From Rickettsiales bacterium (GTDB taxonomy: Bacteria; Pseudomonadota; Alphaproteobacteria; Rickettsiales; SXRF01), in assembly GCA_964231325.1 (NCBI GenBank), contig CAXRIF010000002.1, positions 287,138 to 351,137 on the forward strand: DNA of 64,000 nucleotides, given 5' to 3'. The notes beneath the pieces are model-generated. The model did not search any database and was not told the origin of the DNA. It saw nothing but the letters and a program-made list of their open reading frames with translations. Shown here in pieces: positions 10,861 to 11,733 of the stretch. Positions within the stretch are counted from its first letter, which is position 1; the number at the start of each line of letters is the position of its first letter. Position numbers and translations under genes: made by a program.

Positions 10861-11733
10861 TTAGTTAAAGCGCATACGCAGGTTACACGCTGGGCTGTTG
10901 CCCGGTGTAGAGCCACGCGCATAAGTCGCTGAGCTTTCAGTTGATGCACCAGTAGTTGTACAGTCACCTGCAGCTGGAGTTGATGCATCGTTGGTTGCAG
11001 CATTCGTTGAAGACAAGGTACCGAATGTACCATCCACCGTAGTACTAAAGGCTGTACCACGTGCCTGAACGATACCTGTGTTTGGTTTACCATCATCCAG
11101 TTTGCTGTCGATATTAAACGACTCAATTGGTGTAAGAGCGAATGTATCTACATATGTTGCTGTAGCAGCCGCACCACCTGTGATGGCAGATAGACCAACC
11201 AGACCGTAATAGTTCAGACCGGCGCTAGAACCTGCAAGCCAGTATGTACCACGACCAATTTTTGTCCCAGGCACAAAATCACCTGGAGCGTTAGAACCAG
11301 CCGCTGCCTGAGCGGTAGAAGCAGTCAATGCCGTACCGAAGCTACCGTCTGTCAGATTAGCATCCGTCAGATGACGCCAGAAGATCAGCGTTTCACCTAC
11401 AGGAGCGTTAATGTTCGTAGCAGCTGTATCTGTAATTAGTCCATTACCATCACCAAGACCAGTCGTACCGGAACCCTGATAGATACCGAAAGCAGCAGCT
11501 TGTGCGGCAACCAAGTCACCAGGCATACCGTTATACTTGGTACGGAAGGTATTGATAGCGGCGTTGTATTTTTCATATTGGCCGATTGTAGCGCGCACTT
11601 CTGCGGCTTTAATCAGATCCTGGCCGACGAGCACGCCGCCCACGATAAGACCGATGATTACCAGCACGATCGAAAGTTCGATCAGCGTAAAACCAAGCAG
11701 CCCTTGTTTTTCTTGGGTTGGGGATTTTTTCAT
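10861..11733 (-). CDS. Type IV pilin / pseudopilin-like protein with a prepilin N-terminal methylation domain; unusually large at 290 aa
   Basis: It has a class III signal, MKKSPTQEKQGLLG|FTLIELSIVLVIIGLIVGG, with Glu at +5. The C-terminal half is Thr/Ser/Ala/Gly-rich. A C-terminal Cys pair is present (GDCTTTG...SPACN). An AGGAG Shine-Dalgarno and a strong terminator flank the gene. Confidence 0.85.
   Translation of the reverse strand: MKKSPTQEKQGLLGFTLIELSIVLVIIGLIVGGVLVGQDLIKAAEVRATIGQYEKYNAAINTFRTKYNGMPGDLVAAQAAAFGIYQGSGTTGLGDGNGLITDTAATNINAPVGETLIFWRHLTDANLTDGSFGTALTASTAQAAAGSNAPGDFVPGTKIGRGTYWLAGSSAGLNYYGLVGLSAITGGAAATATYVDTFALTPIESFNIDSKLDDGKPNTGIVQARGTAFSTTVDGTFGTLSSTNAATNDASTPAAGDCTTTGASTESSATYARGSTPGNSPACNLRMRFN

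Follow-up and report, generated by a model that had tools for sequence, protein, structure and literature searches.

Large subunits of type IVa pili are already known. Among 1,955 mature type IVa (T4a) major pilins in one survey, lengths run from 42 to 297 amino acids (aa) with a mean of 141 ± 25, and 12% measure at least 166 aa (PMC11046646). PilA of Myxococcus xanthus, 208 aa when mature, has been seen in its filament (PDB 8TJ2), and large heads were proposed from that structure to pack more tightly and stiffen pili (PMC11046646). The free-living ancestor of the Rickettsiales is likewise inferred to have had type IV pili (T4P), which have been connected with colonising surfaces and escaping protist grazers; the parts of those studies considered here treat the machinery, not the filament subunit. 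Here we analyze a strong candidate for that subunit, the product of a prepilin gene in a 64,000-nucleotide stretch of contig CAXRIF010000002.1 from a Rickettsiales bacterium (the whole stretch is called the window below). At 276 aa the mature protein is about double the mean major-pilin length. An original prediction, made from the sequence alone, had called it larger than known major pilins, which is right in degree, as it falls in the extreme tail of the published range and still within it. We propose that the gene probably encodes a retractile type IVa pilus subunit that is either the major one or one of several interchangeable major ones, and that the host is most likely a free-living, basal Rickettsiales-like alphaproteobacterium. 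What is added to the large T4a major pilins already described is extreme size, a head with no detectable relation to solved pilins and a lineage outside those found rich in large pilins; no new category of system is involved.

The prepilin and its closest described relatives

The gene and the parts of its product are as follows.

10861..11733, minus strand: prepilin gene (open reading frame call), 290-aa precursor, 276-aa mature protein
11692..11733, minus strand: leader peptide MKKSPTQEKQGLLG, 14 aa, ending in Gly(−1) before the prepilin peptidase cleavage site
11533..11691, minus strand: alpha1 helix, the predicted filament-core segment, precursor residues 15-67 (AlphaFold)
10864..11532, minus strand: globular head, residues 68-290, T/S/A/G-rich, low in charge, conserved, with no structural match (AlphaFold, Foldseek, alignments)
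11083..11109, minus strand: invariant motif D209-x-K-x-D-D-G-x-P217 (28-sequence alignment)
10885..10962, minus strand: C258...C283, candidate D-region disulfide loop, followed by the conserved C-terminus LRxRFN (alignments)

In the list of open reading frames (ORFs) of the window, the 290-aa protein encoded at 10861-11733 starts with ATG. Its 14-residue leader, present as the original prediction described it, is firm because two in-frame stops lie just 5′ and no other start occurs ahead of Gly14. Directly after the leader comes FTLIELSIVLVIIG. The N-terminus passes TIGR02532 (prepilin N-terminal cleavage/methylation domain; 21.1 bits, cut-off 16.3) in the NCBIfam scan and scores slightly under the cut-off of N_methyl in the Pfam scan. 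G14, F15, T16, L17 and E19 are invariant in an alignment of 28 family sequences. The protein has the features that define a type IV filament subunit, with a short basic leader, Gly(−1), a hydrophobic N-terminus, Phe(+1) and Glu(+5). Alpha1 is near-invariant across the family in the 28-sequence alignment and in one of 150 sequences; in mature numbering it carries F1, E5 and G14, and V22 where P22 is usual, flanked by G18, G19 and G23. The helix extends over residues 17-67 in one AlphaFold model and 30-67 in the other.

The original prediction had named structure prediction as a check, and the result is a confident lollipop architecture. The AlphaFold model made with 150 homologues has a pLDDT of 94.3 and a pTM of 0.91, with no segment below 50. 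Alongside the long alpha1 it has a large alpha-beta region containing two short helices, as well as a beta-sheet and a strand at the C-terminus (predicted strands, in precursor numbering, at 163-170, 173-185, 193-197, 222-225 and 283-288). The N-terminal helix of about 50 residues is predicted to pack on the antiparallel beta-sheet, a packing read from pTM and secondary structure and not from coordinates. C258 and C283, the terminal cysteine pair of the original prediction, are the only two cysteines of the protein; they are invariant in the 28-sequence alignment and at least 90% conserved among the 150. Based on the class III signal, alpha1 on a beta-sheet, the invariant C-terminal cysteine pair and the presence of PilB, PilC, PilT and PilU in the same window, the protein is a type IV pilin-class protein, as first proposed.

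Conservation is not confined to the N-terminus and extends over the whole protein. Besides the D209-P217 motif and most of alpha1, the residues invariant in the 28-sequence alignment include W119, C258, C283 and the C-terminal F289 and N290. The motif sits at the C-terminal end of a predicted helix (202-212) and in the loop after it, ahead of a strand; its K, D, D, G and P reach at least 90% conservation across the 150-sequence alignment, and it is retained in a second pilin of the window (25356-26132) as DSKEDDGFP. From its sequence and conservation we consider it a candidate structural or metal-binding site. The dominance of T, S, A and G in the C-terminal part, also noted originally, is borne out: these residues make up 52.6% of positions 97-290 (S+T 24.7%) vs 27.9% (S+T 11.3%) of the 9,147 residues of the other window proteins, and 60.9% (S+T 35.9%) of positions 227-290. 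The richness is common to the family, with a head mean of 45.5%, and charged residues (K+R+E+D) account for about 11% of the head vs about 26% of the other window proteins. We considered and ruled out a low-complexity or disordered tail on the strength of the family-wide conservation and high model confidence, and the T/S/A/G-rich two-thirds is, as modelled, a folded domain and not a floppy tail.

Sequence resemblance to solved pilins is confined to alpha1 and the first part of the head. The best PDB sequence match is Neisseria PilE (E=7e-7), joined by a Geobacter pilin, PilA and MshA when the family profile is used, and a profile of the family alignment matches known pilins among PDB sequences over its N-terminal 24-110 residues only. 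Neither Pfam nor NCBIfam holds a model for the head past the N-terminal motif. Foldseek searches with both models (one of pLDDT 76 against PDB, that of pLDDT 94.3 against PDB and BFVD) returned nothing at E < 0.001; the best values for the second model were 1.3 in PDB and 1.2 in BFVD. The sole pilin in the Foldseek lists was Clostridioides difficile PilA1, at E=0.078 with the weaker first model.

Set beside M. xanthus PilA, the protein shares the class III signal, Phe1, Glu5, a long alpha1, an enlarged head and a machine of the PilB/PilC/PilT type, and where the M. xanthus head carries disulfides it has the candidate C258-C283 disulfide. It differs in being about 70 residues larger, in lacking Pro22 and in belonging to a family with many paralogues. 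The M. xanthus leader is presumably also longer than the classic 5-7 aa. The head has no sequence or Foldseek similarity that we could detect to 8TJ2 or other PDB pilins, and the alphaproteobacterial lineage lies outside the taxa in which large pilins were over-represented (PMC11046646).

The resemblance to Neisseria PilE and Pseudomonas PilA (PF00114) runs through alpha1 and part of the alpha-beta region, which give the PilE match above, and through the C-terminal cysteine pair at the D-region position. Unlike those classic T4a major pilins, it is about twice the size, has a 14-aa leader and Val22, does not match PF00114 and is encoded away from any pilBCD; nor was glycosylation machinery identified in the scanned ORFs of the window. 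Mannose-sensitive haemagglutinin (MSHA) pili of MshA and MshE provide a third comparison, in that the extension ATPase here also has an MshEN domain and the family profile matches MshA weakly in alpha1. The solved MshA chain has 171 aa, however, its head is unrelated, and the window shows no msh operon organisation and carries PilT and PilU in a separate operon. Type IVb pilins (TcpA, BfpA, PilS) have leaders of 15-30 aa, a residue other than Phe at +1 and a dedicated single operon, usually without PilT. Here residue +1 is Phe, the gene is solitary, and PilT and PilU are present.

Pilus machinery, locus and expression signals

The same window encodes an extension ATPase of the PilB type, a PilC and a retraction ATPase of the PilT type, the set that defines a type IVa pilus.

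45799-46923, plus strand: pilT, T2SSE domain (TIGR01420 PilT/PilU, 480 bits vs a cut-off of 319)
46928-48061, plus strand: pilU-like retraction ATPase gene, with a second T2SSE domain
52283-53485, minus strand: pilC, T2SSF platform protein (domain scan)
53485-55302, minus strand: pilB, extension ATPase with an MshEN N-domain that binds cyclic di-GMP (c-di-GMP) (T2SSE and MshEN)
25356..26132, plus strand: second pilin of the family, 258 aa with 6 cysteines (family match)

PilB matches NF053729, a c-di-GMP motif related to MshE, at 61.6 bits (cut-off 38), which suggests from sequence that pilus extension is under c-di-GMP control. Directly 3′ of pilB-pilC, three ORFs at 48805-52102 on the minus strand match no Pfam or NCBIfam model. 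The first, of 606 aa, combines a cytoplasmic domain with a single transmembrane segment (363-381) and an extended C-terminal part; the second (229 aa) has a hydrophobic N-terminal stretch and the third (265 aa) a signal-peptide-like N-terminus. All three may represent alignment-complex proteins of the PilM-N/PilO/PilP or GspL/M-like kind that have diverged. An ATP-binding cassette (ABC) ATPase gene follows them at 48062-48802.

These genes bear on an alternative in which the protein serves a type II secretion system (T2SS)-like apparatus, or another type IV filament system not used for motility, either as a pseudopilin-like subunit or as a substrate that is secreted or anchored. Public data list an identical protein under the name 'MAG: type II secretion system protein [Rickettsiales bacterium]', its best NCBIfam matches are GspH and GspG, and the window ATPase scores about equally on the GspE (511.9 bits) and PilB (507.3 bits) models, below the cut-off of both. 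The pseudopilin matches, however, lie far below cut-off (GspH 23.3 bits vs 80; GspG 20.8 vs 88.85) and cover the shared N-terminal motif only. None of the equivalog models of GspG/H/I/J/K reaches its cut-off, and there is no gsp operon context in the window. GspG is also only about 134 aa (model length) vs 276 aa here, no GspD, GspC, GspL or GspM family match occurs in the window, and a T4a/MSHA-like pilus is indicated by the retraction ATPases PilT and PilU together with a PilB of the MshEN type. We therefore regard a pseudopilin as highly improbable, and the public name is probably misleading whether or not the protein is a major pilin.

The surroundings of the pilin gene itself are as follows.

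9862-10362: pagL, convergent with the pilin gene
12056-12601: trcR, upstream on the same strand
11741..11745, minus strand: Shine-Dalgarno sequence AGGAG, 7 nt before the ATG
11833..11862, minus strand: putative sigma-70-type promoter TTGCGC-N18-TATGAG, read from the upstream alignment and partly conserved in orthologues
11878..11907, minus strand: conserved upstream element GCTAACGATTTGGTAATATTTGATTGCTAG, about 145-175 nt 5′ of the ATG (alignment of orthologous upstream regions)
10807..10837, minus strand: intrinsic terminator GGAGCCGCC-UUCG-GGCGGCUCU followed by U9 (hairpin at 10837-10816)

The expression signals of the original prediction were both recovered. AGGAG, GGAG or near variants precede many orthologues as well, and the terminator, with a 9-bp stem holding 7 G-C pairs, a UUCG loop and U9, folds at −19.3 kcal/mol (z = −4.25), which none of 200 shuffled sequences equals. 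With an effective number of codons (Nc) of 40.5, the pilin gene is the lowest of 54 window genes (next 45.3) and favours GGT, GCT, CGT, ATC, AAC and CTG; Nc is confounded by genomic G+C content. The gene was also said to sit alone, 33 kb from the assembly genes. The distance roughly holds, with pilT starting at 45799 and pilC and pilB at 52283-55302, and the solitude needs correcting for the second pilin at 25356-26132. The two pilins are nearly identical in alpha1 and 38% identical over residues 3-223. The second gene has average codon bias (Nc 53.3) and lies between genes for an endonuclease/exonuclease/phosphatase-family protein and a XerC/D-like recombinase; we consider its product a candidate minor or alternative pilin.

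Across 78 related loci, the best from GTDB species-representative genomes, about 30 have TrcR next to the pilin gene and 12 have PagL. The TrcR-pilin-PagL order is conserved and defines an orthologous locus. TrcR has been described in the literature as an RNA-polymerase-associated factor and not a site-specific regulator, so we dropped the idea that adjacency makes it a pilin-specific regulator and treat it as conserved synteny only. When 22 window proteins were searched against these loci by tblastn, PilT, PilU and a TPR protein were found at the edge of one locus, 5 kb from the pilin, and PilB, PilC, UbiA and GT-C-like proteins gave no match; family members almost never have an assembly ATPase gene within 8 kb.

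The upstream regions of 12 TrcR-linked orthologous loci align over one block, present in all 12, of the form GGTAAC-N2-TTTGGTAA-N2-TTT-N5-6-CTAG. Its core, GTAAY-N2-WTTDGTAA, contains a direct repeat, GTAA-N7-GTAA. The exact core occurs in 16 of 82 loci, one copy each and always on the plus strand, defined as the strand of the family match at each locus, and in 14 of the 16 (L007, L010-L015, L018, L047, L049, L054, L055, L059 and L065) it lies about 80-260 nt 5′ of a pilin-family gene. The window has one site with 1 mismatch, at 11891-11905 on the minus strand. Judged from its sequence and position, the element is a candidate activator site or promoter element, and since the repeats are spaced by 11 bp, a response-regulator-type activator is plausible; to our knowledge no regulator site matches GTAA-N7-GTAA. 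L004 and L017 differ in that their single core copy lies 3′ of the pilin gene(s) and may precede another gene.

Other signals were considered and set aside. Sigma-54 sites (TGGYAY-N5-TTGC) were absent upstream of this gene and of about 100 homologues, which rejects them as a general control. The CtrA box is TTAA-N7-TTAA, and such boxes precede only 8 of about 100 homologues, with none in the window, so CtrA was rejected likewise. The putative sigma-70-type promoter was not called by the consensus scanner. An Rfam scan of the whole window gave zero matches, including for tandem repeats of 10-bp period between pagL and the pilin terminator, AAACGGTTCC in 4.1 copies (10688-10728) and TTCTAACGGG in 2 copies (10767-10786).

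Major or minor subunit

The protein belongs to a large family of pilins of 270-310 aa. A word-indexed search found at least 2,728 relatives, the best 120 of which align over nearly their full length at 46-73% identity, and an exhaustive HMMER search of 1.84 billion cluster representatives gave 984 at E<=1e-30 and 9,779 at E<=1e-10. The identical protein on public record is also encoded by a contig of GCA_041254985.1. No homologue name says more about function than 'prepilin-type N-terminal cleavage/methylation domain-containing protein'. The 78 best loci come almost entirely from uncultured Alphaproteobacteria or 'Rickettsiales' metagenome-assembled genomes (MAGs), among them UBA6178 (Ca. Mitibacteraceae) and UBA3002. 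The literature assigns UBA6178 to Ca. Mitibacteraceae and UBA3002 to a family of basal, free-living Rickettsiales; complete T4P gene sets are inferred for these lineages, and one study infers sulfate assimilation.

A few full-length relatives lie on long contigs labelled Acidobacteriota, Planctomycetota or Bacteroidota, and the head domain is therefore not strictly clade-specific. Relatives in MAGs labelled as other phyla (L067 6729-7760 and 9800-11053; L074 9299-10603; L073 9868-10986; L062 5066-6898) have as neighbours an IS110 transposase, TraG/VirD4-type coupling proteins, a C-5 DNA methylase and a TadE/G-like protein with a VWA domain, which hints that some of those copies travel on mobile elements or that the contigs are mis-binned.

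Several lines of evidence lead us to read the protein as a major subunit. It has the class III signal with E5 and a near-invariant alpha1 in common with its paralogue, this helix (and only this helix) is similar to the major pilins PilE, PilA and MshA, and the lollipop is predicted with high confidence. Its gene is monocistronic, with a strong Shine-Dalgarno sequence and terminator and codon bias that stands out at the level of the window, and it has a dedicated conserved candidate promoter element in the conserved TrcR-pilin-PagL locus. A retractile T4a machine is encoded in the same window. The family-bearing MAGs include UBA6178 and UBA3002, and large major pilins are already established (PMC11046646). 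The original prediction of a major subunit is thus plausible on the indirect grounds of Nc, Shine-Dalgarno sequence, terminator, conserved locus and element, with the codon-bias argument cut back. When we extended that argument to orthologues it failed, since just 2 of 15 loci bearing the motif have the pilin as their gene of lowest Nc, and we reduced its weight.

The lack of a general codon bias is one of several points that weigh against a major subunit. Alpha1 lacks Pro22, and at 14 aa the leader exceeds the 5-7 aa of classic T4a pilins. The window shows no PilQ, no PilD and nothing recognisable as PilMNOP, and its scanned ORFs include no prepilin peptidase (Peptidase_A24). Since the view takes in 64 kb of the genome, the remainder may encode a short PilA of the canonical kind and an operon of minor pilins. 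Paralogues are also frequent: many genomes have several or more, either single or in tandem groups of 2-5, and one MAG has 7 loci. Such multiplicity could equally be expected of specialised minor or tip pilins.

The last point leads to the alternative in which the protein is a minor or accessory pilin, a low-abundance primer or tip adhesin whose paralogues provide alternative binding specificities, while a smaller protein is the major pilin. The multi-copy family with its tandem arrays and scattered loci, the large head with variable loops, the codon bias that is not general among orthologues and the partial view of the genome all accord with it. Several observations do not. The Pfam and NCBIfam scans of the protein found no match above cut-off to minor-pilin or pseudopilin families (GspH/I/J/K, PilV/W/X and others), a lack of likeness that also supports the major-subunit reading. 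E5 is kept, and the gene is monocistronic with the strongest codon bias of the window and a strong Shine-Dalgarno sequence and terminator. Genes for minor pilins are usually part of operons; this one stands by itself at a conserved locus. The alpha1 helices of T4aP minor pilins are usually diverged; here alpha1 is almost identical between the paralogues, as for interchangeable core subunits. On balance we consider a minor pilin unlikely and retain the major, or one alternative major, subunit as the probable role.

As a major subunit, the prepilin would enter the inner membrane through the hydrophobic N-terminal segment of alpha1, and a prepilin peptidase encoded outside the window would cleave it after Gly14 and methylate Phe1. 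The PilB/PilC motor, in which PilB carries the MshEN c-di-GMP-binding domain, would then polymerise the subunits, with the near-invariant alpha1 helices forming the filament core and the large heads covering its surface, and PilT and PilU would retract the filament. The head of about 220 residues, conserved, rich in small residues and low in charge, would be closed by a C258-C283 disulfide, and its variable Ser/Thr-rich loops (about 229-270) would point outward. Transcription would be monocistronic, from a promoter preceded by the conserved GTAA-N7-GTAA element, and would stop at the strong terminator.

If the protein is a major pilin, it extends the 'large pilin' concept of Myxococcus and offers a target for structural work, along with a conserved promoter element for a regulator search; its family, with 984 representative clusters at E<=1e-30, has no Pfam or NCBIfam head model and no solved structure. 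If it is not, it belongs to an ordinary though oversized family of pilin-like paralogues. The interest is moderate, to pilus and Rickettsiales-evolution specialists. We speculate further, as a tentative extension that we hold to be rather improbable, that the family builds an undescribed class of thick type IVa pilus with a low-charge surface rich in small residues and a head of about 220 residues without a solved relative. Such a pilus might be the ancestral surface- and host-attachment organelle of free-living basal Rickettsiales (Mitibacteraceae, UBA3002-like), with a dedicated regulator acting on GTAA-N7-GTAA and paralogues swapping exposed loops for binding specificity or evasion of phages and grazers.

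The glycosylation idea and the UbiA cluster

The surface-exposed region was originally said to look like a substrate for O-glycosylation, with a pentose-donor cluster at 38558-41581 as a possible link. In its full form, the idea is that the pilin is heavily O-glycosylated with pentose on a Ser/Thr-rich surface from a donor made by this cluster, by analogy with TfpW and D-arabinofuranose on group IV pilins of Pseudomonas aeruginosa. The first gene of the cluster encodes the enzyme concerned.

38558-39412, minus strand: UbiA enzyme, decaprenyl-phosphate phosphoribosyltransferase-like (PDB and NCBIfam match)

The UbiA protein matches mycobacterial decaprenyl-phosphate phosphoribosyltransferase (PDB 8j8j, E=1.4e-34) and scores 232.8 bits on NF008977, just below the cut-off of 234. 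To this extent the pentose-donor label stands. The rest of the cluster (38558-41581, minus strand) consists of two paralogous polytopic membrane proteins of 361 and 365 aa, with 29% mutual identity and a common C-terminal GEYRVFF motif, that match only faintly the family 'AZOBR_p60025 cell surface glycopolymer formation' and could be lipid-donor glycosyltransferases. The high Ser and Thr content of the head, above all in residues 227-290, would also suit glycosylation, as would the location of the Ser/Thr-densest stretch (229-270), which probably forms exposed loops because it is the most variable and indel-prone part.

The same residues argue against the idea when looked at position by position, since Ser/Thr is kept as Ser/Thr at 6 of 54 positions and the other 48 are not conserved, and the Ser/Thr-rich part is ordered in the model (pLDDT mostly > 90). 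A distance of 27 kb separates the cluster from the pilin, and at none of the 78 loci does any of the three cluster genes occur within 8 kb of the pilin homologue, which leaves a pilin-UbiA link unsupported though not refuted. No DprE1/DprE2-type gene adjoins the UbiA gene among the scanned ORFs, and the label of pentose-donor cluster is about half right. Oligosaccharyltransferase and glycosyltransferase (GT) domains (Wzy_C/PglL-, TfpO- or GT-type) were found neither in the scanned window ORFs nor beside 10 diverse homologues, and a Pfam scan of the neighbours of those 10 gave no transferase. The P. aeruginosa system of group IV pilins resembles the present case in that a pilin and a polyprenyl-phosphate phosphoribosyltransferase homologue occur in one genome. 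In P. aeruginosa the transferase gene lies directly 3′ of pilA, unlike here, where no transferase adjoins the pilin in the window or at related loci and no DprE1/DprE2 lies by the UbiA gene. Lipid-linked pentose donors more usually supply cell-envelope glycans. Nothing beyond composition speaks for the head as a glycosylation substrate, and composition alone cannot carry that inference in a conserved domain that is confidently predicted to fold; we consider heavy pentose glycosylation of the pilin very doubtful. The cluster at 38558-41581 looks like a lipid-linked pentose glycan module.

Farther along the window, at 57515-63761 on the minus strand, lies a sulfate-assimilation cluster with a CysN/C fusion, CysD-like and CysH-like PAPS reductase-family proteins, a siroheme synthase fragment and sulfite reductase, consistent with the free-living lifestyle of basal Rickettsiales in the literature. 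With both these genes and the pilus machinery present, the window fits the picture of the UBA6178 and UBA3002 lineages.

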